Below are positions 2,712 through 18,105 of a stretch of 28,054 bases of DNA, piece by piece. The position numbers and the translations under genes are program-made. This DNA comes from Gammaproteobacteria bacterium. GTDB taxonomy: Bacteria > Pseudomonadota > Gammaproteobacteria > Pseudomonadales > Azotimanducaceae. The notes beneath the pieces are model-generated. The model worked only from the letters and a program-made list of their open reading frames with translations, did no database searches and was not told the origin of the DNA. Each line of letters starts with the position of its first letter. The first letter of the stretch is position 1. The DNA is taken from the NCBI GenBank assembly GCA_003228415.1, contig QIDL01000190.1, forward strand, positions 1 through 28,054. The letters run 5' to 3'.

Positions 2712-5700
2712 GTGGATAAGCATCTACAAGAAGGCGACAGACTTTACCTGATTGCAGAGAGTCTGGCGCAGGATTTCTCCTTGTTTCCGAGCACGGAAAG
2801 CGATGAGTTGTTGCCGGGCTGTCTCGGCAAGCGGGAAATCTTTCGGCGACAACAACATCTGAGCCGATTGGACGTGGATTCCTATATCGAGGCGGTGATC
2901 ACGCCTGCGGAAGATCCCGGTCGGATTTCGGCCCCGGTCATCATCCGTCAACTCGGCCGGGTGCTCGAGGAAGCATCCGAGGGATCCTTCTACTCCGCAA
3001 TTATAGAGATGGATTTCGACGGGGATACCCGCGCGGTAGGTTTCATCGCTCAGGACCGATCCTATCGCAATGGTGAATGGGGTCCGTCTCATCATCTGCA
3101 GGCGGCCGATCGATTGCAGGCTTTCTCGCGACGTGCCATTCCCATCGTGACGCTGATGGATACGCCGGGTGCGGATGCCAAGGATGAAGCCAACCGTCAC
3201 AACCAGGCTCATAGCATTTCCCGGCTGATTGCAGAGGCGAGCAACGTCGACGTGCCCAGTGTCGGGATCGTCTATGGGCTTGGCTATTCTGGCGGCGCGA
3301 TACCGCTGGCGGCCAGCAATATGATTCTGGCGCTCAAGGATGCCGTGTTCAGCACCATTCAACCTAAATCGCTGGCAAGCATTGCCCGGCGCCTGAACCT
3401 GTCGTGGCAGGAATGCGCCAAATACGTGGGCCTGTCTGCCTACGAGCTGTGCGAGCAGGGCAACATAGACGGCGTGGTGGATTTCTCGCCGGCCGACCCC
3501 AGCGTGGAAAACCTGCGCGCAGCAATTGTGGCGGGCATAAAGCGTGTGGAAGATTCGTGCCTCGAGTTCGTCGCAGAAAACCCGTATATCCTCGATCACT
3601 ACCGACAGAGCCTGCGGCGATTCCTCAACCCCTCTGAACATCTCAAGCGCATGCAGGCCGGGGCCGCACTGAAGCGTTCTCGAAATCCCACCGAATATCT
3701 GAATGTTTTCGGTGTGGCTTTCAGATACCTGAGATATCTGAAGGTGAGACAGCGCATCAAGGCCACCACCACCTCTCAGTATGGCCGACTGTCCAATCAG
3801 GAACTCCCCAAAGGCGAACTCGATAAGCGTGCCGAACTGGAACGGCGCCTGACCTTTCTGAAGTGGTTGCAGGATCCCGATCGGGTGGTTTACGACGAAG
3901 CCCTGTCCAGATCCTGGAAAAACTACAACGAGAAAAAGCAGGCGGTTCACGATGAACGAGGCCGCATTGCCCAGTTGCTGTTCGGCGAACCCAAGAAGAA
4001 CTACGAAGAAGCCCGGTCGGGCATACTTTCATCGGTCGGCGTGTTCCTTTACAACCGCTGGAAGGCGGAAGCCGTGGGGAACTTACGGGCGCTGAAGGAA
4101 TTTCTTGCCCAGCCCGATGACATCCGGCAGATCCTGAGAGTCTCGGACATCAGTGATGCGCGTGCGTTGATCGAAGCGCTTGGCGAAGATTCCGAACTGC
4201 TGGCCACTCTCAGGAAGAGCTTCTCCCACGAAGGTAAGAAATTGCTGGCAGGGACGAGAGATCTGGATGAGAAGTCAGATCAGTATCTCAGCACGCAACT
4301 TGCAGTCGAACTCAATCTGGCCATCACCGGTGGGTCCCTCACCGGCGATGAAACTGCCAGTCTGGCAACGAATCGGCGCGTGTTGGGCGAGCGTTTCAGC
4401 GGTCTGATCAAGCCGGTCGACGAAGTGCGATCGCCGGTCGCGTTCAGCGACCTGACCGTGCTGGATGTGCTGGTGGAAGATGATCTGCGCCCAGATTTCA
4501 TCAAAGAATGCGAGAACCTGCTGCTGTTCGATTCTGTTTACGATCAGATCATCGCCAACCTGGATCGTATCGCTGAAGAAGCTCAGGCCGGACAGTCCTT
4601 ATCGAAGGACTCTCTGGCCGAACTCATTGAAGCGACGCTCAGCCTTGCGGCTCAGGGCATCACTCTGGGCGGCGAAGAATCGGCTGGTGAAAGCGCGGCT
4701 GTTCGTCAGGCAGTGCTGGCCGAACAGATGACCGACTGGTATCTCAGAATTCAGGGCATGCCGAAGAATACCGAGTTTTTCCGTTTCGTCGAGGAGTGGA
4801 AAAAGGTCGTGTTTCCGCACTTATCGGATGCGCTCTTTGTCGTGGTCACACATTTGTTCGAAAACCTGCTGCTTTCCTACATCCAGTCGGAGCGAGAAGG
4901 TAAGAATTATCAGGGTCGTATCGCGCCGAAGAACATAGGGCGCCGCAAGGACTTCTGGAACAATCTGAACATGGCCTACCGCGACCTCCGTATCCAGAAT
5001 GTGTTACGTGATGTAAAGAATCAGAAGCAGACTGGTTATCAGAAGTTCATCGATCGGTTCTTCACGGACTTCGAAGAGCGGTACGCGGATCTCCTGAGTT
5101 CCGATCCGCGCAGTTTCCCCGGTTTTCGCATCGCCATCGAACAGGCGCTGGATCACAACTTGCCACCGTGCGGCGTGGTTGTGGGTCTTGGTAACTTCGT
5201 CGGTGGCGATGCCCCGATTCGGGTCGGTACGCTGATCTCCAACTTTGGTTTTCAAGCCGGATCGTTTGATATGGCGAGTGCCGAGAAATTCTGCAAGCTG
5301 CTGGTGGATTGTGCCGAACAACATCTGCCGGTCATCTGCTTCATCTCATCCGGCGGCATGCAGACCAAGGAAGGCGCGGGTGCGCTGTTTTCCATGGCTG
5401 CGGTCAACGATCGGCTGACCCGCTTTGTGCGGGATCACGATCTACCGATCATAATTTTTGGTTTCGGCGATTGCACCGGGGGGGCTCAAGCCAGCTTCGT
5501 GACCCATCCACTGGTGCAGACCTACTACTTCAGCGGCACCACCATGCCGTTTGCGGGCCAGATCGTGGTGCAATCGAACCTGCCTCTGAACTCAACACTG
5601 TCCAACTACCTGTCTCAGGTGGATGGAGCGATGCAGGGTCTCGTGCAACACCCGTTTCATCCCGAGCTCGATGAGGCGCTGAGAATGATCGACCCCGACA

Positions 5701-7559
5701 TTCCGCTGCCTCATGAATCGGTGGGCGAAGTCGTTTCCCGGGTTTTATCCGGCGTTCTCAGTCAGAAGCGTCCTGTTGTGGTTGCCCATCGCCAGCGTTA
5801 CACAGACCAGGAACTGATCAGACCGGTGCGGAGGGTTTTGATTCATGCCAGGGGCTGCACGGCGGCAAAGCTGATACGAATCGCGCAGAAGAACGACATC
5901 GAGGTGGTCCTGGTGCAGTCCGATCCGGATATGGAGTCGGCTGCCGTCGATCAGTTGCTGCCGCGTGATCATCTGGTGTGTATCGGTGGCAACACGCCGG
6001 ACGAGAGCTATCTCAACGCCATGAGCGTTTTGCGGGTGGCCGAGCTCGAACGGGTCGATGCTCTGCATCCGGGGATCGGTTTCCTGTCTGAGAATTCCGG
6101 TTTCGCGGAACTCTGTCGCAGCCATGGCATCAACTTCATCGGCCCGCCCGTTGCCAGCATGGAGACCATGGGTAACAAGTCCAATGCAATCAGCACCGCT
6201 CTCGAGCTCGAGGTACCTGTCGTTCCCGGTAGCCACGGAATTCTCACCGATGTGGAAAGTGCCTCGCGGGTTGCCGGGTCACTGGGCTATCCGGTACTGA
6301 TCAAGGCCGTGCATGGGGGCGGTGGCAAGGGCATCCAGATCGTCGAGCACCCGGACGAATTTCATGAGTTGTTCCAGCGCGTTACCGTTGAAGCCCGGGC
6401 GGCGTTTGGGAACGGCGATGTCTATCTGGAAAAGTACGTCACCTCACTACGCCATATCGAGGTCCAGTTGCTGAGAGACACCTATGGCAATACCAAGGTG
6501 CTGGGTCTCAGAGATTGCAGCATCCAGCGCGACAAGCAGAAGGTGTTCGAGGAATCGGATGCCACGATGTTGCCGGCGGATCTCAGAGCAGCGGTACTCA
6601 AGCACACATCAGATATCGCGGACGAAGTAGGCTATGTCGGTGCCGGAACGGTGGAATTCATCCACGACCTCGAGAGCGAGGCCATTTACTTCATGGAGAT
6701 GAATACCCGCTTGCAGGTGGAGCACCCGGTGACAGAGTGGGTCTCCGGGATCGATATCGTCTCCGAGCAGTTTCGGATAGCTTCCGGGGAATCCATTGCC
6801 GATCTGGAACCCGCGAACGATGGCTACGCCATCGAGGCTCGGATCAACGCTGAGCGGATCGAGGTTGGAGCAGATGGTGAGCTGGCATTCCGGCCGCACC
6901 CGGGGCAGATCACTGTTTTTGAGCTTCCACAAGAAGATGGAGTTGAGATCATTTCGGCCGTATCCGAGGGTAAATTCGTCTCACCCTTTTACGACAGCAT
7001 GATTGCCCAGGTCATCGTTCACGCCTCGGATCGGAACGCGGCCGTTACCAAATTGCTCGGCTATCTCGACACTGTGTCGATTCAGGGCATCAGTACCAAT
7101 GTGCCGCTGCTGAAGCGGGTTCTGCAGGATTCGGTGTTTCTGGACGGCATATACGATACCGGCTATCTGCGTGAATTCCTGACGCGTATCGACGTGGAGA
7201 AGCTCAGCGAAGAGATTGACGCGTCGGCTGGGGAGATCGGTGGTGGCATTGACAGGGAAGCCATCCGGATCGAAGACAGCGCGGAATTGAAGGTGCTGTC
7301 TCCCGCCACTGCCATTTTCTACACGACCCCCACTCCGACCGAGCCGGAGTTTGTGACCGTCGGTGACAAGATCAGGATTTCGGATACCATCGGGCAACTC
7401 GAGGCGATGAAGATCTTCACCCCGCTCAAACTCGCCGACTTCAATGGTGATGTGGAGCTTTACGACCCGGCACAGGAGTTCGAGGTCACCAGGATCAATA
7501 TGGCAACAGGTCAACAGGTCAACGTCGGTGATCTGCTGTTCGTGGTGAAGGCGCTTTGA
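2712..7559 (+). CDS. Single-chain multidomain biotin-dependent acyl-CoA carboxylase: CT-alpha (AccA-like), unknown helical region, CT-beta (AccD-like), biotin carboxylase (AccC-like), BCCP (AccB-like)
   Basis: AccA-like IVTLMDTPGA and GLGYSGGAIPLA (about aa 150-200). AccD-like FQAGSFD, LPVICFISSGGM, CTGGAQASF and PFAGQIVV (about aa 775-960). BC motifs HPGIGFLSEN, IKAVHGGGGKG, RHIEVQ, RDCSIQR, EMNTRLQVEHPVTE and YDSMIAQ (about aa 1037-1490). Biotinyl motif EAMK (Lys1567). The start is uncertain: GTG2712 has no SD, and TTG2781 has AGGA 7 nt upstream. Confidence 0.93.
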   Translation: MDKHLQEGDRLYLIAESLAQDFSLFPSTESDELLPGCLGKREIFRRQQHLSRLDVDSYIEAVITPAEDPGRISAPVIIRQLGRVLEEASEGSFYSAIIEMDFDGDTRAVGFIAQDRSYRNGEWGPSHHLQAADRLQAFSRRAIPIVTLMDTPGADAKDEANRHNQAHSISRLIAEASNVDVPSVGIVYGLGYSGGAIPLAASNMILALKDAVFSTIQPKSLASIARRLNLSWQECAKYVGLSAYELCEQGNIDGVVDFSPADPSVENLRAAIVAGIKRVEDSCLEFVAENPYILDHYRQSLRRFLNPSEHLKRMQAGAALKRSRNPTEYLNVFGVAFRYLRYLKVRQRIKATTTSQYGRLSNQELPKGELDKRAELERRLTFLKWLQDPDRVVYDEALSRSWKNYNEKKQAVHDERGRIAQLLFGEPKKNYEEARSGILSSVGVFLYNRWKAEAVGNLRALKEFLAQPDDIRQILRVSDISDARALIEALGEDSELLATLRKSFSHEGKKLLAGTRDLDEKSDQYLSTQLAVELNLAITGGSLTGDETASLATNRRVLGERFSGLIKPVDEVRSPVAFSDLTVLDVLVEDDLRPDFIKECENLLLFDSVYDQIIANLDRIAEEAQAGQSLSKDSLAELIEATLSLAAQGITLGGEESAGESAAVRQAVLAEQMTDWYLRIQGMPKNTEFFRFVEEWKKVVFPHLSDALFVVVTHLFENLLLSYIQSEREGKNYQGRIAPKNIGRRKDFWNNLNMAYRDLRIQNVLRDVKNQKQTGYQKFIDRFFTDFEERYADLLSSDPRSFPGFRIAIEQALDHNLPPCGVVVGLGNFVGGDAPIRVGTLISNFGFQAGSFDMASAEKFCKLLVDCAEQHLPVICFISSGGMQTKEGAGALFSMAAVNDRLTRFVRDHDLPIIIFGFGDCTGGAQASFVTHPLVQTYYFSGTTMPFAGQIVVQSNLPLNSTLSNYLSQVDGAMQGLVQHPFHPELDEALRMIDPDIPLPHESVGEVVSRVLSGVLSQKRPVVVAHRQRYTDQELIRPVRRVLIHARGCTAAKLIRIAQKNDIEVVLVQSDPDMESAAVDQLLPRDHLVCIGGNTPDESYLNAMSVLRVAELERVDALHPGIGFLSENSGFAELCRSHGINFIGPPVASMETMGNKSNAISTALELEVPVVPGSHGILTDVESASRVAGSLGYPVLIKAVHGGGGKGIQIVEHPDEFHELFQRVTVEARAAFGNGDVYLEKYVTSLRHIEVQLLRDTYGNTKVLGLRDCSIQRDKQKVFEESDATMLPADLRAAVLKHTSDIADEVGYVGAGTVEFIHDLESEAIYFMEMNTRLQVEHPVTEWVSGIDIVSEQFRIASGESIADLEPANDGYAIEARINAERIEVGADGELAFRPHPGQITVFELPQEDGVEIISAVSEGKFVSPFYDSMIAQVIVHASDRNAAVTKLLGYLDTVSIQGISTNVPLLKRVLQDSVFLDGIYDTGYLREFLTRIDVEKLSEEIDASAGEIGGGIDREAIRIEDSAELKVLSPATAIFYTTPTPTEPEFVTVGDKIRISDTIGQLEAMKIFTPLKLADFNGDVELYDPAQEFEVTRINMATGQQVNVGDLLFVVKAL

Positions 7560-7609: not shown

Positions 7610-8344
7610 CTAGTTGAAACCGAGTAATCCGGTGGCTCCCCTGGCGAACAGGAGGGTGGCGATGGCGAGGATCACCCAGCTGCTCGCTGTCCGGAACCGT
7701 TTATCTGTCAGCCGTACCAGCATGCGAGTCCCGATTCGGGTCCCGATCACAGCGGTCACAATCGCCAGAGCGTAGACCCAGTCTGGCATCGCGTCGCTGA
7801 CCCCGATGATCAGGCCGTAATAAAAAAGTTTCAGCAGATGTCCGAGCGTCTGGGTGAACGCCTTGCTGGCAATGACCTCGAAGCGATTCAATCGCGTGTT
7901 GAGGTAGAAGACATCGAGCAGAGGGCCGGATGCACCGGCAAAGAGTTGTGCGGCAGTGACCGCGATTCCGCAGGCAAAGGTGGTAGGCGGATGATTGATG
8001 TCCAGACCGTGGAGCCTGGGAGTGAGGCGAGCCAGCCAGGGGAAGATGCCGACAATCATCAGAATCAGATTGGCATCCGGAAGCACTGCCAGAACGCTGA
8101 AGGCGGCGACGGTGATGGCAGCACCGAGGGCGTATGGCGGCAGGATGTGCCATTGTATGTGAGCCCTTAGAAACCAGGCGCGCGACCCGTTCGCGGTGGC
8201 CTGTACGGCTCCGTGGAGCATCATGGCCGCTCCCACCGAAAGCACAGAGACCAGAATTGCCATCAGAATCATGCCGCCCGCCATTCCGATAAATCCGGAT
8301 AACGCGCTGGTAGCCAGCACGGCGGTGAGGATCAGTGGGATCAT
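7610..8344 (-). CDS. Sulfite exporter TauE/SafE (TSUP) family membrane transporter
   Basis: Multiple hydrophobic segments, with the N-terminal SGFIGMAGGMIL and second-half AGASGPLL glycine motifs typical of TSUP. I moved the start from 8497 (which overlaps the LysR gene) to ATG8344 (MIPLILT); ATG8374 is an alternative. Confidence 0.8.
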   Translation of the reverse strand: MIPLILTAVLATSALSGFIGMAGGMILMAILVSVLSVGAAMMLHGAVQATANGSRAWFLRAHIQWHILPPYALGAAITVAAFSVLAVLPDANLILMIVGIFPWLARLTPRLHGLDINHPPTTFACGIAVTAAQLFAGASGPLLDVFYLNTRLNRFEVIASKAFTQTLGHLLKLFYYGLIIGVSDAMPDWVYALAIVTAVIGTRIGTRMLVRLTDKRFRTASSWVILAIATLLFARGATGLLGFN

Positions 8345-8423
8345 GGCGGGGCAGGATGCCGACGCTCCGATCATGAAAAAAGCGAATAGTTGGAATATGA
8401 TCTGGTCGGAATAGGAAACTATT

Positions 8424-9278
8424 GTGCTGGAAAATCTGGAAACGCTTGTGACCCTGTCGAGAACGGGGACCATGATGGAGACGGCCACGGTGCTCAAGGT
8501 CTCTCAATCTGCCGTGAGTAAACGCATCGCAGCGCTGGAGCGCTACTACGATCGAGCCCTCATCGAACGCCATGGCCGGCGGGTAGTGCTCACCCACCAC
8601 GGCACCAAGCTGGTGGAGAAGGTGACCCCACTCATTTCGGAACTGCGTGGGGTATTTCTCACCGATAACGCGCTGCGGAAGGGCAAAATCATCCTCGGAG
8701 TTTCGGAAGCGATACTGTGCAGCTGGGGCCCGAAGCTGTTCGCCGATGTGCAGGAGCTCATGCCGGAGGTGGAGTTCACCTTTCATGCTCAGCGATCGCC
8801 GGTGGTTCTCGACCGGCTCCGCTCGGGGGAGTACATGGTCGGTATCTGCACCGGCACGTCGGATGCGGATACCGATCTGCAGAGTGAGGTGATCCGCCGT
8901 GAGCCGATGGTGATACTGCCTGCCGGGCTCAGAACGTTGGACTACGAAATTGGAGATCGGCTCGACGTCATCACCATTGAGTCCAGATCGGGTGCCTGGC
9001 GATCCATCGAAGACGACATGGGTCGCTTGAACCTGGTTCGTCGAGAATCCCTGGAGTCGTTTTTTGCGGTCGCGCAGATGGCGATGGCGGGTTTCGGCAA
9101 CGGCCTGGTTCCTGCAGGTGTCGCCAGAACTCTGGGTGTTCGGGAATCCGACTGGATTGACCTTACGGTGGCCGGTCTCAACCGACCGGTGCGCTTTGTA
9201 GCCCGTAAATCGATGTTTGCCCAACCTCTGGTGCAGAACTTTTATCAGGCGGTGTCGGAACGGGTCCAATTCGTCTAA
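8424..9278 (+). CDS. LysR-family transcriptional regulator, divergent from the TSUP gene
   Basis: N-terminal HTH LETLVTLSRTGTMMETATVLKVSQSAVSKRIAALE, then LIERHGRRVVLTHHG and a GKIILGVS effector-domain start. GTG start preceded by AGGA; 284 aa. Confidence 0.93.
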   Translation: MLENLETLVTLSRTGTMMETATVLKVSQSAVSKRIAALERYYDRALIERHGRRVVLTHHGTKLVEKVTPLISELRGVFLTDNALRKGKIILGVSEAILCSWGPKLFADVQELMPEVEFTFHAQRSPVVLDRLRSGEYMVGICTGTSDADTDLQSEVIRREPMVILPAGLRTLDYEIGDRLDVITIESRSGAWRSIEDDMGRLNLVRRESLESFFAVAQMAMAGFGNGLVPAGVARTLGVRESDWIDLTVAGLNRPVRFVARKSMFAQPLVQNFYQAVSERVQFV

Positions 9279-12841: not shown

Positions 12842-15625
12842 TTATTGCAGATTGTCCAATGACTGGAGCTGTTCGCTCAGCACCGCGAGTGACGCGTTCG
12901 CTTCTTGCGCTTTTCGCTGTTCTTTGGCGACGACCTCTGCAGGCGCCTTGGCGACGAAGTTCTGATTGCCGAGTTTCTTCTCGATTCGCTCTAGATCGGC
13001 CTTCTTGCGTTCAATTTCTTTACTGAGCCGTAGCCGCTCACCCTCCACGTCGATCAGACCCGCCAGCGGTACCATGACCTTCAGATCGCCCACCAGCGCC
13101 AGAGCGTTTGGTGGCGGCTGTGCAGGTTCATCCAGCCAGCGAATGGCGGTTACCTTGGCGAGACGCTTGAGCAGCGCTGCGGAATTCTCGGAGAGCGCCC
13201 GATCCTCACTGCCGCCACCCTGCAACAGGAGTTCGATTTCTACGCCCGGCTTGATATTCGCCTCACCGCGAATATTGCGAATTCCATCGATGACGCCCTT
13301 GAGCCACTCCACCGCTGTGTCTGCCTCGATATCGACAGGGAAATCTGCGAGATCCGGGAAGGGCTGCAGCATGATCGTGGGGCCCTCGTTTCCGATCAGA
13401 GGAGCGACCTCGCACCAGATGGTCTCGGTGATGTAAGGGATGATCGGATGAGCGGCGCGCAGCAGACAATCGAGCACACGCAGTAACGTCAGACGGGTGC
13501 CGCGCAGCTCTTCTGCGGAGGCGGATTCATCCCACAGCAGTGGCTTGGTGAGTTCAAGATACCAGTCGCAGTACTCGTGCCAGACAAATTCGTAGATACT
13601 TTTCGCATACAGATCGAAACGATAGGTGGCAATGGCTCGCTCGGCATCTTCGATCATGGCGTGGGAGCGTGAAAGGATCCAACGGTCTGCGAGACTTAAG
13701 GCCACGGGCCCTTCGAGGCTCCCCTCATCGGCGTCTGCGTTCATCAGGACAAACCGTGCTGCGTTCCAGAGCTTGTTGCAGAAGTTGCGGTAACCTTCGA
13801 TCCTGGCAAGATCGAAGCGTACGTCCCTGCCGGTGCCGGCCAGCGCGCAGTAGGTAAAGCGCAGGGCATCGGTACCGTAGGAAGGGACGCCGTCCGGAAA
13901 ATCGCGTCTGGTCTTTGACTCAATACCCGGCGCCATCTGCGGCTGGGTGAGGTTGCTGGTGCGCTTTTCGATCAATTCATCCAGGGTGATCCCTTCAATG
14001 AGATCCAGCGGGTCGAGCCCGTTGCCCTTGGTCTTGGACATTTTCTGACCGTCGGCATCCTTGACGAGGCCGTGTATATAGACCGTTTTGAAGGGGATCT
14101 CGCCGGTGAACTTGAGTGTCATCATGATCATTCTGGCGACCCAGAAGAAGATGATGTCATGGCCGGTCACCAGGGCATCCGTTGGATGAAACTGCGAGAG
14201 CTCCTTGGTTTGCTCGGGCCAGCCAAGGGTGGCAAACGTCCAGAGTGACGAGGAGAACCAGGTCTCCAGCACGTCCGGATCCTGCTCCAGGCGAATACTT
14301 TCACCGAGTCGGTATTTCACCCTGACCTCGGCTTCGCTACGGCCTACATACACTTTTCCCTCGGGATCGTAGTAAGCCGGGATGCGATGGCCCCACCACT
14401 GCTGACGGGATATGCACCAGTCCTGAATGTTGCGCATCCAGGCGAAGTAGACATTCTGGTATTGCCGGGGAATGAATTCGATCTCGCCGTTTTCCACCGC
14501 GGCGATGGCCGGCTCCGCCAACGGCTTTATTTTGACGAACCACTGGTCGGTCAGTAACGGCTCAATGATCGCTGCGGAACGGTCACCTCGGGGAACCATG
14601 AGCTTGTGTGGTTCGACCTTTTCCAGCAGGTCGAGAGCATCCAGGTCGGCGACGATCAGTTTACGGGCATCGAATCGATCGAGCCGACGATACGCTTCGG
14701 GTGCGTTGTCATTGATGGACGCATCCGGGTTGAAGATATTGATCAGAGCCAGGTCGTGCCGGGCGCCAATCTCGTTGTCGTTGAAATCGTGCGCAGGCGT
14801 AATCTTGACACAGCCCGTACCAAAATCCACATCCACATAGTCGTCCGCAATGATCGGTATGTCTCGATCGGCGAGGGGCAGGCGCACCGTTCCACCGATC
14901 AGATTCTTATAGCGTTCGTCATCGGGATGGACGGCGACCGCGCTATCTCCGAGCATGGTCTCAGGCCGAGTCGTGGCGACTACCAGATAGTCTGTTCCTG
15001 TCGAGGTGGTCAGTCCGTCCGTCAGCGGGTAGCGGAAGTGCCAGAGCTGGCCGTCTTCCTCTTCGTTTTCGACTTCCAGATCCGAGATCGCCGTCAGCAG
15101 CTCCGGATCCCAGTTGACCAGCCGCTTGCCACGGTAGATCAGGCCTTCTTCGAAGAGCTGGACGAATACTTCCAGCACGGCCCTGGAGAAGCCTTCATCC
15201 AGGGTGAACCGATCGCGCGACCAATCCAGAGAACTACCCATGCGCCTGAGTTGTTCAGAGATCGTGTTGCCGGAAGAGCGTTTCCAGTCCCAGACCTTTT
15301 CGATAAAGGCCTCCCGGCCAATGTCCAACCGGCTTGTGCCTTCGGCATTCAATTGTCTATCGACCAGCATCTGGGTGGAAATGCCCGCATGGTCGGTTCC
15401 CATCTGCCACAGCGTGCAATTGCCTTTCATTCGATGGTAGCGGATCAGTGCGTCCATCAACGTGTGCTGAAAGCCGTGGCCCATGTGCAGGCTGCCGGTG
15501 ACGTTGGGCGGTGGTATGACAATGCAGTAGCTCGGCCCATTACCCTGGGGTGCAAAGTTTCCGGCTTCTTCCCATTGCTGATAGAGAGTCTGCTCAATGC
15601 CATGTGGATCGAAACTGCTATCCAT
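12842..15625 (-). CDS. valS: Valine--tRNA ligase
   Basis: [13 protein letters not shown] (HIGH), [39 protein letters not shown] (KMSKS) and a C-terminal coiled coil. Start reassigned to ATG15625 (MDSSFDP), which overlaps the upstream stop. Confidence 0.98.
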
Positions 15626-16199
15626 CGGTATCGGAATCGCCCCTTTCGTTGAGTGGAGGTCGAGCTTCCAGAAGCGCTTTGATCTGCTCATTGAGCGCGG
15701 CTTCGGCGGCGCTCAAAATTTCCGCCCGGAGTTCCTGCAGATGTGCTCGAATGGTTTTATGAAGCCACTCGGTGAGCGTGGCGTCGATACGAATCCGCAA
15801 CGCTTCATTCAATTCGTCGGTGTGTTCCGGTGTCCATTCATTGCGTTGCGCTTCGATAGCGCCCCGTGCTTCTGTCATCAGGTCTGCCGCGGTGCGCTGC
15901 CAGTCGTCGCCGAGCAATGCCTGAAAGAGATCTTCGTCCAGGCTGTCCTCGGTAGCATCCATGCCGGTATCCAGGTCGAGTGCAGGCCTCTCGAACGATG
16001 TTTCCTGGAGATCTATACCACCGTCCACTACGTCATCGAGAAGAGGCACGCGAGATTCCGCCGTGGCTTCCTCATCGACGGGCAGTTCCACATCGAGTAG
16101 TTCCCTGATCGACTCGAGATCAACGAGCAGCATGTCGGGTGACTGTTCGTCGACGTCAACCTGCCCACCGGTGTTGCTGGAATCGCTGGCCTTGCTCAT
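15618..16199 (-). CDS. Conserved-position acidic hypothetical protein between holC and valS; PopZ-like architecture (hypothesis)
   Basis: 193 aa, overlapping holC by ATGA and valS by 8 bp. By my count 49 of 193 residues are D/E (30 in the first 100, against 4 K/R). Motifs [20 protein letters not shown] and a C-terminal amphipathic region containing LTEWL. Confidence 0.85.
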
Positions 16200-16642
16200 G
16201 TTGCGGTCTGATCGGTTTCCCAGTCATCGAGTTCATGGTGGTATAGAGGAAAGCCCCGATCTCGATAGAACTTGTATCGATCGCGACCCTCTTCACGAGT
16301 GTCCTGCACCACGATTTCCGCAACTCGATCGAAGCGACCGAAGAATTCCGGTACGGTCCGCGTCAAGTTCACCAGAACGCCATCGTATCGTGGTGGCTCA
16401 CACCACGTCAGCACGATCGGTGCCACTCCGGATGCGCCATCGGATTGCGTGCAGTGCGGCAAGAATCGGCGATCGGGATAGTGCCACAATAACTCGTCGA
16501 CTTCGCTCGCCGCCTGTTCGTCGTCCGTGTGCATGATCACCTGATGCCCGGCGCGAACGGCTTTGGATGCGAGCCGACAGGCAAAGCGATAGAGCGCCGA
16601 TATCGCCACATCCTGCAAAACATAGAAGTCGACGCGGGTCAT
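16196..16642 (-). CDS. holC: DNA polymerase III subunit chi
   Basis: MTRVDFYVL, FACRLASKA, VDELLWHY-x3-RFLPH, VLVNL, PEFFGRFDRVAEIV and RYKFYRDRG; sits between pepA and valS. Confidence 0.95.
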   Translation of the reverse strand: MTRVDFYVLQDVAISALYRFACRLASKAVRAGHQVIMHTDDEQAASEVDELLWHYPDRRFLPHCTQSDGASGVAPIVLTWCEPPRYDGVLVNLTRTVPEFFGRFDRVAEIVVQDTREEGRDRYKFYRDRGFPLYHHELDDWETDQTAT

Positions 16643-18105
16643 GCCTCAGCCTGATCGATGAGAAACCGAAACAGCATACCCAGCGGGCGGCCGGTCGCTC
16701 CGTTTTGTGGCCCGCCCGGGAAAGCCGTCCCGGCCACGTCGAGGTGCGCCCACTTCTGACCTTCGGTAAAGCGGCCCAGGAAGCAGGCGGCGACGATAGA
16801 GCCTGCGCCGCCTTTACCAATGTTCGAAACATCCGCGAACTGGCTTTTCAATCCCACCTGATACTCATCCCATAGCGGCATTCGCCAACCACGATCACCG
16901 CTCGCCTCTCCCGCCTCGAGCAGCGCGTTCGCGAGCGTATCGTCATTGGCATAGACGGCCGAGGCGTGTGCACCGAGTGCCATTATGGCGGCGCCGGTGA
17001 GGGTGGCAACATCGATCAGCACTTTCGGTTTGAAGCGTGCCGCATAGGCCAGGGCGTCACACAGAACCAGGCGACCTTCCGCATCGGTATTGAGAATTTC
17101 CACCGTCTTTCCGGAAAGCGTTTCAACGATGTCTCCCGGTCGCGTTGCACGACCGCTCGGCATGTTCTCGGCGGCTGCCACGATAGTGACCAGATTGATC
17201 GCCAGCCTGGCGTCGACGGCCGCTCTGGTTACACCGAGGACGTTCGCGGCGCCACACATATCGTATTTCATATCCTGCATGCCGCCCGAGGACTTCAGGT
17301 TGATGCCACCGGTATCAAAGGTAATCCCCTTGCCCACCAGGACGACGGGCGCATCGCTCGAGTTCCGAGCCCCTCGATAGCGAACGATGATCATCCTGCC
17401 GGGATTTTCGCTGCCCCGGGTCACGGCCATGAAGGCGCCCATGCCAAGCTCGCCCATCTTTTTTTCATCGAGGGAGGTGACCGTGACCTTGGGGTTGCGG
17501 CCCAGTTTTCTGGCTTCCTTGAGAAGGTAGGAGGGGTTGCAGACGTTGGGTGGCTGATTGGCCAGATCGCGTGCCCAGTCGAGACCCGCTTTGGCGCCCT
17601 GACCGTGACGCACCGCGCGGGCAACAGAACCGCGCGTTCGGGCATCGGCATGCAGGGCGACCGTGTTCAGGGAAATATCCCCATTCTTGCCGGGCTGCCT
17701 GTGCTGGTTGAAAGAATACAGAACGTTGGAAAGGGCGGAGAGGGACGCGCTGGCTTTCCAGTAGACATCTTCAGCTTTGACTCTGGTGCCCGTCAGAGCC
17801 CACAAAGCACTTTTTGCTTTGACGCTTTTCAGTCCAGTGGCAGTTGCCTTGACGGCTTTGCTGAAGTCTTCGCGTGTAACCGAAGCGCCAAGCCCGCCAA
17901 TCACCAACATTTTCTTGATTGGGCTCGAAGGACCAAGATTGACCAGATGTGTTTGACCGATTTTGTCATCGAAATCGGAGGTCGACGTCTCGAAGAAGCG
18001 CGCCGCGCCATGCTGCCTGGCGACTTGTTGGCATTGTTTCAGGTTCGCTATCAGACAATCGGTTCGGGATTCGGCGAGGGTGATGGTGGTGGTCGAATAC
18101 TTCAT
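16639..18105 (-). CDS. pepA: Leucyl aminopeptidase (M17)
   Basis: LVGKGITFDTGG, MKYDMCGAA, VEILNTDAEGRLVLCDAL, IDVATLTGA and WAHLDVAGTA metal-binding motifs. Confidence 0.97.
   Translation of the reverse strand: MKYSTTTITLAESRTDCLIANLKQCQQVARQHGAARFFETSTSDFDDKIGQTHLVNLGPSSPIKKMLVIGGLGASVTREDFSKAVKATATGLKSVKAKSALWALTGTRVKAEDVYWKASASLSALSNVLYSFNQHRQPGKNGDISLNTVALHADARTRGSVARAVRHGQGAKAGLDWARDLANQPPNVCNPSYLLKEARKLGRNPKVTVTSLDEKKMGELGMGAFMAVTRGSENPGRMIIVRYRGARNSSDAPVVLVGKGITFDTGGINLKSSGGMQDMKYDMCGAANVLGVTRAAVDARLAINLVTIVAAAENMPSGRATRPGDIVETLSGKTVEILNTDAEGRLVLCDALAYAARFKPKVLIDVATLTGAAIMALGAHASAVYANDDTLANALLEAGEASGDRGWRMPLWDEYQVGLKSQFADVSNIGKGGAGSIVAACFLGRFTEGQKWAHLDVAGTAFPGGPQNGATGRPLGMLFRFLIDQAEA

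Follow-up and report, generated by a model that had tools for sequence, protein, structure and literature searches.

A post-holC family of acidic proteins in Gammaproteobacteria and its possible kinship with the hub protein PopZ

The gene called X here (P0001) lies between holC and valS on contig QIDL01000190.1 (assembly GCA_003228415.1) of a gammaproteobacterium; the whole stretch analysed, 28,054 nucleotides (nt) long, is referred to as the window. Its product is firmly assigned to a large family of acidic, half-disordered proteins that occurs across the class Gammaproteobacteria and whose genes follow holC and usually precede valS. The balance of evidence leans towards this post-holC family being distantly related to the alphaproteobacterial protein PopZ and equivalent to it in position. 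It leans marginally less towards the favoured reading taken as a whole, in which X is a PopZ-type adaptor or scaffold of the post-holC family and probably distant PopZ kin. Literature searches found no paper on the post-holC family. The new elements are the recognition of DUF2486 as a branch of this family, the use of a set of proteins called group B as a bridge to PopZ, the uneven loss of the gene among the members of one bacterial family, and the controls with reversed profiles, which separate trustworthy similarities from others.

PopZ is the best-studied of the bacterial hubs that form condensates. It is built from an N-terminal client-binding helix, H1 (of the MEEILASIRRII type), an acidic and proline-rich disordered linker, and a C-terminal oligomerization domain of the form LRPMLKEWLDxNLPxLVE. 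An earlier reading of the window, made from its letters alone and called the sequence-only reading below, had proposed that X is a remote homologue or analogue of PopZ. The N helix, the order of the helices and the linkage with valS speak for this proposal, whereas a match to the PopZ model PF10691, a likeness of the C-terminal domains and the alignment of their EWL motifs could not be upheld.

The post-holC family

Gene X is real and conserved. Its relatives, 87 in a collection at 90% identity and, as representatives, 104 in a library at 50% identity, keep both the frame and the motifs, and the neighbouring genes are constant in 19 of 19 loci, which places the open reading frame (ORF) beyond chance. 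An alignment of 30 relatives contains 23 invariant residues, including W100, W122 and W145, and residues including the three tryptophans are invariant in 30-82 sequences at 25-60% identity. All labelled relatives come from uncultured Pseudomonadales, several of them from Candidatus Azotimanducaceae. Neither Pfam nor NCBIfam has a match for protein X, and its close relatives are all without a name, none of them carrying a Pfam domain.

The three-part build described in the sequence-only reading reappears in the structure predicted by AlphaFold2 from 82 sequences, with an N-terminal helix, a disordered linker and C-terminal helices (Table 1). The short amphipathic motif noticed at amino acids (aa) 23-35 and the linker motif VPLLDDVV are both in place, the C-terminal region that had looked helical is predicted as two helices, and a recount of the first 100 residues gives the same 30 D/E against 4 K/R; the isoelectric point of the product is 4.05. 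The linker of 53 aa is made up of 34% D/E and 6% Pro. In the close family, the invariant residues comprise D27, L28, I31 and L35 in the N helix, P52, L53, L54 and D56 in the linker motif, and L95, L96, W100 and I115 in the first helix of the C-domain. The helical stretch that ends in TEWL starts at aa 129. Among 48,161 chains of solved structures compared with VIA-align, the long helix matches coiled-coil segments only (Z 5.6-5.8); because a helix of 56 residues cannot stand alone and finds only such partners, the C-domain probably joins copies of the protein. Foldseek searches against the PDB and against Swiss-Prot models, and a search of the ESM Atlas by shape, gave no telling match for protein X. 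The predicted complex of three copies of aa 85-185, folded without an alignment, has a score of 0.02 and a predicted local distance difference test (pLDDT) value of about 50, and counts neither way.

Beyond the close relatives, the profile of the X family was run on 300 other genomes of the order and finds weak matches in 48 of them, with per-genome E-values from 1e-11 to 1e-3. All 29 of the loci fetched have the matching gene directly after holC, most of them also before valS. The proteins encoded in this slot measure 123-382 aa and carry an N helix (LL.DLESI+.LL), a motif of the form IP(L/T/V)L.D(V/I)V and a C-terminal helix, and none of them matches Pfam. In one family of large genomes (3.7-6.7 Mb) the slot gene is present in 8 of 8, with proteins of 123-151 aa. 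The sequence-only reading had placed an uncharacterised ORF of Pseudomonas aeruginosa, given there as PA3833, between holC and valS; an equivalent slot gene does occur across the order. A third motif, NPF(I/L)P.E.(I/L)..L, is located between IPxL and the C-terminal helix in loci L051, L052, L054, L057, L058, L060, L062, L076 and L078; where slot proteins of the order carry it, the X family has LF.ALLGD.W.

A survey of the surroundings of valS, suggested earlier as a check, extends this picture to the class. It was anchored on valS with one genome per family in 160 families, and 60 upstream regions were read. About 21 of the 60 regions contain a slot gene with an IPxL motif upstream of valS, usually after holC, and two long slot forms of 531 and 598 aa were seen; holC abuts valS in 13 regions, and other neighbours are found in the remainder. 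One unpublished genome (G607) enters the valS tally alone, and nothing claimed here depends on it. The slot gene recurs in both order and class, and in the class-wide alignment the proline of the IPxL motif is invariant. Profile comparisons with hhalign connect the three sets, the X family with the slot proteins of the order in the N-part (P 1.7e-15), the X family with the class-wide slot proteins in the C-part (P 6e-7), and the class-wide set with that of the order (P 2.8e-5). Searches with the class-wide profile are dominated by the close X family, and the slot protein most similar to PopZ (L104) retrieves 12 close relatives only.

Other gammaproteobacterial slot proteins, for example a hypothetical protein of Sulfuriflexus mobilis (P0203), share with X their genomic slot, N helix, IPxL motif and C-terminal helices. 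The C-domain of the X family is longer and far better conserved than theirs, with three invariant tryptophans and the sequence WTPEDTDELN, which is replaced in other branches, for instance by the NPF(I/L)P motif.

The family also includes proteins known to Pfam as DUF2486 (PF10667). A language-model search places clusters carrying this domain among the neighbours of X. The PF10667 model itself (gathering score 22 bits) has no match in X, in its relatives or in the proteins sampled from the order and the class, nor does it match anything in the window's own genome. True members of DUF2486 were found only in one family of bacteria with genomes of about 7 Mb, probably Burkholderiaceae, in 28 of 81 genomes; in wider samples covering 401 genomes of the phylum, DUF2486 was found in only two, both of this same family. 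In 23 of 26 loci holC is the gene immediately before that of DUF2486, whose product carries the motif SIPxLTDVLVPG; valS does not follow within 1.4 kb. The set consists of loci L172-L199, two of which, L198 and L199, have the protein in an open frame (726 and 759 aa) running to the edge of the locus.

The DUF2486 segment TPEDAQHIAERLRNRL aligns in hhalign with the long helix of protein X at P 1.3e-3 over 32 columns (reversed control 0.05), and the maximum reached in 100 shuffles is 16.2 against 21.9 observed. DUF2486 proteins resemble X in their acidic or Pro/Ala-rich linker, their C-terminal helices (which in DUF2486 have the pattern IAERLR...WLV.QITREVA..LE...W), their (S)IPxL(T/D)(D/E)V motif and their position after holC; they differ in having neither the N-terminal helix nor the valS neighbour. 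Given this position, the SIPxLTDVLVPG motif and the C-terminal alignment with X, DUF2486 is, as judged by sequence, firmly placed as one branch of the post-holC family. The comparison with DUF2486 that had been advised for X therefore reveals a relationship, though the Pfam model misses X, and it ties an orphan of Pfam to a much larger family.

The resemblance to PopZ

The PopZ reference set consists of 30 loci with a match to PF10691 (DUF2497) above the cut-off (gathering score 27 bits), encoding proteins of 163-296 aa. In 25 of these 30 loci valS is the next gene downstream of popZ and has the same orientation, in agreement with the adjacency described in Caulobacter and Agrobacterium (PMC5686542), so the earlier remark that PopZ commonly lies beside valS is well founded. 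Gene X occupies the same position relative to valS, on the same strand, and the two proteins are similar in size. Their build is similar as well: PopZ (PF10691, PDB 6XRY) has an N helix of 15 residues, an acidic disordered linker, a medium helix and a long terminal helix (predicted). Folded by the method used for X, it shows helices at residues 11-25, 112-129 and 150-189, with disorder after the first. The acidity of the linkers is also close, with an acidic fraction of 0.34 in X and 0.29 in PopZ (PMC9512792).

One similarity in sequence concerns the N helix. The stretch LL.DLESI(R/K).LLDEE of X aligns with MEEILASIRRII.DD of PopZ at P about 3e-4, and hhalign returns the same register with three definitions of the X family (P 2.9e-4, 8e-4 and 2.7e-4; 25-45% probability in the program's own terms). 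The observed score of 22.8 is to be compared with 8.0+-1.5 in 48 column shuffles, and reversed profiles give P 0.23-0.31. The likeness of the N motif to that of PopZ, first seen by eye, is thus reproducible, in one register and with clean reversed and shuffled controls. Hidden Markov models (HMMs) of PopZ, run on 2,053 ORFs from 89 loci, put slot ORFs first: these take all 9 leading ranks with the N model and 9 of the 10 leading ranks with the C model, with the match at the expected end of the protein. Every E-value in this ranking exceeds 0.1, and forward sequences score only modestly above reversed ones.

PopZ has been stated to occur only in Alphaproteobacteria (PMC9512792). The proteins of group B suggest a distribution of PopZ-type proteins that is wider than the usual alphaproteobacterial set. 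They are weak matches to PF10691 from the same phylum, outside the class Gammaproteobacteria. Hyper-acidic and repetitive, with runs such as EPEAEAEPEPE, these proteins measure 480-990 aa and have a PopZ-type N helix, PSMEEIL.SLE at the front and a DUF2497-like C-terminus. The corresponding loci are L080-L095 (e.g. L092:3950-5464:-, P0198). In hhalign, group B matches alphaproteobacterial PopZ in both the C-part (P 8e-14) and the N-part (P 2.5e-8). In 12 of 16 loci its genes precede valS; they follow rlpA-dacC (the latter encoding PBP5, penicillin-binding protein 5), without holC, and the ValS proteins of these loci group with the gamma type, not with those of the alpha loci. The match to PopZ and the position before valS together mean that the popZ-valS pair exists outside the typical alphaproteobacterial set.

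Group B provides a bridge to the post-holC family. The C-terminus of DUF2486 aligns with that of group B at P 2.9e-5 over 37 columns, with a reversed control of 0.22 and a maximum of 17.9 in 100 shuffles against 30.3 observed, and the same register is found against alphaproteobacterial PopZ. For the C-domain of the X family, the comparison with group B gives P 6e-4, a value near noise. Kinship with PopZ is argued from the position before valS, the order of the helices, the reproducible match of the N helix and this one C-terminal bridge, which passes through other branches of the family. The coiled-coil nature of all structural matches to the long helix of X points in the same direction.

Several results weigh against such kinship. 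The PF10691 model has no match at E<=10 in X, in 30 of its relatives or in slot proteins from either the order or the class, and none across the whole genome to which the window belongs, in a search whose control, Caulobacter vibrioides, was detected. Compared directly with the C-domain of alphaproteobacterial PopZ, that of the X family remains at noise level (P 0.06). When 138 sequences are merged into a gamma C-profile and compared with a merged PopZ profile, P is 0.0016, as against 0.017 in the reversed control. Reversed helical profiles can themselves reach P about 1e-3, so C-terminal links of 1e-3 to 1e-4 are close to the noise expected from amphipathic periodicity; the kinship is unproven because the C-domain signal of the X family falls within this amphipathic-helix noise. 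Nor is X singled out when the PopZ HMMs are run on the 37,134 six-frame ORFs of its own genome, where it ranks 7th with one model (E 11) and 400th-3000th with others. Foldseek against the 2.3 million clusters of the AlphaFold database returns a relative of X first and "Pole-organizing protein PopZ" second; as the best match outside the family the latter speaks for kinship, yet its E of 0.23 is not significant. The X family profile finds no PopZ among PDB sequences, where the PopZ set used as a control found 6XRY at 1e-19.

Differences in architecture and distribution weigh on the same side. The linker of X is shorter than that of PopZ (53 against about 85-93 aa) and poor in proline (0.06 against about 0.23; PMC9512792), the latter figure corresponding to about 23% Pro in Caulobacterales, and the earlier comment that the X linker is less Pro-rich was accurate. 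The IPxL motif with its invariant proline is present in X and has no significant counterpart in PopZ; its equation with the DVLELT motif of PopZ was rejected (P about 0.5). The NLP proline break of PopZ is absent from X, and a preceding holC is a feature of gene X but not of popZ. In the GTDB family of the window, moreover, gene X is found in about half of 30 genera. Three genomes of this family (loci L167, L168 and L170) lack it, holC being followed by valS after 65-90 nt, and a fourth (L169) has a short form of 136 aa in which IPLLDD is retained and the N helix is gone. The slot gene has been repeatedly lost or trimmed within a single family, and its absence from about half of the genera implies a dispensable role. 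Escherichia coli is without it.

One resemblance put forward in the sequence-only reading was abandoned. The L-x-EWL of X had been matched with the LKEWL of PopZ; with the C-domains at noise level, hhalign moreover picks another register, and the EWL-to-EWL alignment was rejected. By-eye registers built on the LP motif are mutually inconsistent, and no register is therefore claimed for the C-domain.

Function, alternatives and significance

In the mechanism that goes with the favoured reading, several copies of X would be joined by their long helices at the C-terminus, and one partner protein each would be bound by the N helix and by the IPxL motif of the linker. X would in this way act as an adaptor or scaffold of PopZ type.

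A stronger version holds that X is a true PopZ orthologue and functionally alike, by analogy a self-assembling condensate, located at the pole or excluded from the nucleoid, that would recruit clients such as ParA/ParB through the N helix. This carries perhaps one chance in four. It draws on the same evidence of kinship as the favoured reading, and the acidic fractions of the two linkers, given above, suit it. The short and Pro-poor linker does not, and repeated gene loss within one family is unlike what a central cell-cycle hub would show; other polar hubs, such as HubP, are moreover known in Gammaproteobacteria (PMC8789113).

A slightly less likely explanation is that the X family only looks like PopZ and arose independently as a partner of the replisome subunit chi (HolC). 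X would then dock on chi, or on other readers of the tail of the single-stranded-DNA-binding protein (SSB), and tune replication or repair, the similar build being convergent. Chi binds the SSB tail, which ends in ...DDDIPF, and the acidic D-(I/V)-P-x-L motif of X resembles this tail by eye. The genomic context is suggestive too: gene X and holC overlap as ATGA in the window, and the position after holC, kept also in places without an adjacent valS, is seen in every one of the 29 loci from the order, in most loci of the class survey and in 23 of the 26 DUF2486 loci. Furthermore, no element of the family is better conserved than IPxL, for which PopZ has no significant counterpart, the C-domain likeness of the X family to PopZ is at noise level, and convergence is common among acidic disordered adaptors. 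On the other side, the SSB tail is known to need its free C-terminal carboxylate, whereas the motif of X is internal. Both popZ and the group B genes precede valS without holC, which makes valS, not holC, the neighbour shared across classes, and the match of the N helix to PopZ H1 survives its controls.

The idea that X has no protein function of its own and is a spacer ORF coupling translation of holC to that of valS accommodates the overlaps on both sides and the many relatives in which the gene is dispensable, holC there lying 65-90 nt from valS, and it is nonetheless very improbable, as the invariant residues with their three tryptophans, helices with pLDDT > 90 and motifs conserved across the class indicate selection on protein X itself.

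The favoured reading can also be carried to a bolder conclusion, held as a minority view at about the level of the orthologue proposal. The whole post-holC family, comprising X, the small slot proteins and DUF2486, would be the gammaproteobacterial PopZ, forming self-assembling hubs or condensates, recruiting partners through the N helix and IPxL and possibly tying chi to a cellular location, and the popZ-valS pair would predate the separation of Alpha- and Gammaproteobacteria. If this is so, an unstudied scaffold exists throughout a class to which major model organisms and pathogens belong, the popZ-valS pair goes back to the ancestor that both classes share, and a PopZ relative sits in a conserved slot between two genes of essential function, in a group thought to be without PopZ. 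Even if the resemblance is that of a look-alike, the family is large and without name or function, and its invariant IPxL motif near holC offers a handle on the partner.

The locus and its surroundings

Table 1. Features of the X locus and parts of protein X, in window coordinates (aa, amino acids of protein X; AF2, AlphaFold2)
Feature	Position	Strand	Basis and remarks
Gene X (P0001), acidic protein	15618..16199	minus	193 aa; ORF and translation; member of the post-holC family
N-terminal amphipathic helix, aa 21-35	16095..16139	minus	AF2 pLDDT about 80; consensus LLgDLESIkeLLDEE
Acidic disordered linker, aa 36-88	15936..16094	minus	AF2 without secondary structure, pLDDT 50-60
Short linear motif VPLLDDVV, aa 51-58	16026..16049	minus	Hallmark (I/V)P-x-L-x-(D/E)-(V/I)-V
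C-domain helix 1, aa 89-117 (LFxALLGDxW...ARGAIEA)	15849..15935	minus	AF2 pLDDT 83-91
C-domain long helix, aa 124-179 (56 residues)	15663..15830	minus	AF2 pLDDT 88-97
Variable acidic tail, aa 180-193	15621..15662	minus	No conservation; pLDDT 63-70
holC (DNA polymerase III chi subunit)	16196..16642	minus	Pfam PF04364, E 9e-38
valS (valyl-tRNA synthetase)	12842..15625	minus	Pfam tRNA-synt_1, Anticodon_1, Val_tRNA-synt_C
pepA (leucyl aminopeptidase)	16639..18105	minus	tblastn 54-78% identity, same position, 19/19 loci

Gene X overlaps the genes on both of its sides, as had been noted at the outset. The stop codon of holC and the ATG of X share the tetranucleotide ATGA (16196-16199), and the TAG stop of X lies 8 nt within valS when the latter is taken to start at ATG 15625 (MDSSFDP...). 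This start is the Met at which homologous ValS alignments begin in 19 of 19 loci. The first gene of the row pepA-holC-X-valS is pepA, and this order is kept in all 19 related loci that were fetched.

No RNA run was found to carry the locus of gene X when window positions 15000-17000 were looked for. The same segment is represented by 0.90 of the sampled words in a hydrothermal-vent metagenome run of 2017 and, partially, by 0.42 of them in a sediment metagenome of 2025. Elsewhere in the window, an ORF of 522 aa at 7701-9269 (minus strand) has no Pfam match at E 1e-5 and overlaps ORFs of the opposite strand, and is a candidate gene only. An ORF of 1,615 aa at 2712-7559 (plus strand) combines in one chain a carboxyltransferase part (ACCA/Carboxyl_trans, aa about 107-257) and a biotin carboxylase part (aa 1039-1487); with ~780 aa between these two assigned parts, it looks, from its sequence, like a giant single-chain acyl-CoA carboxylase.

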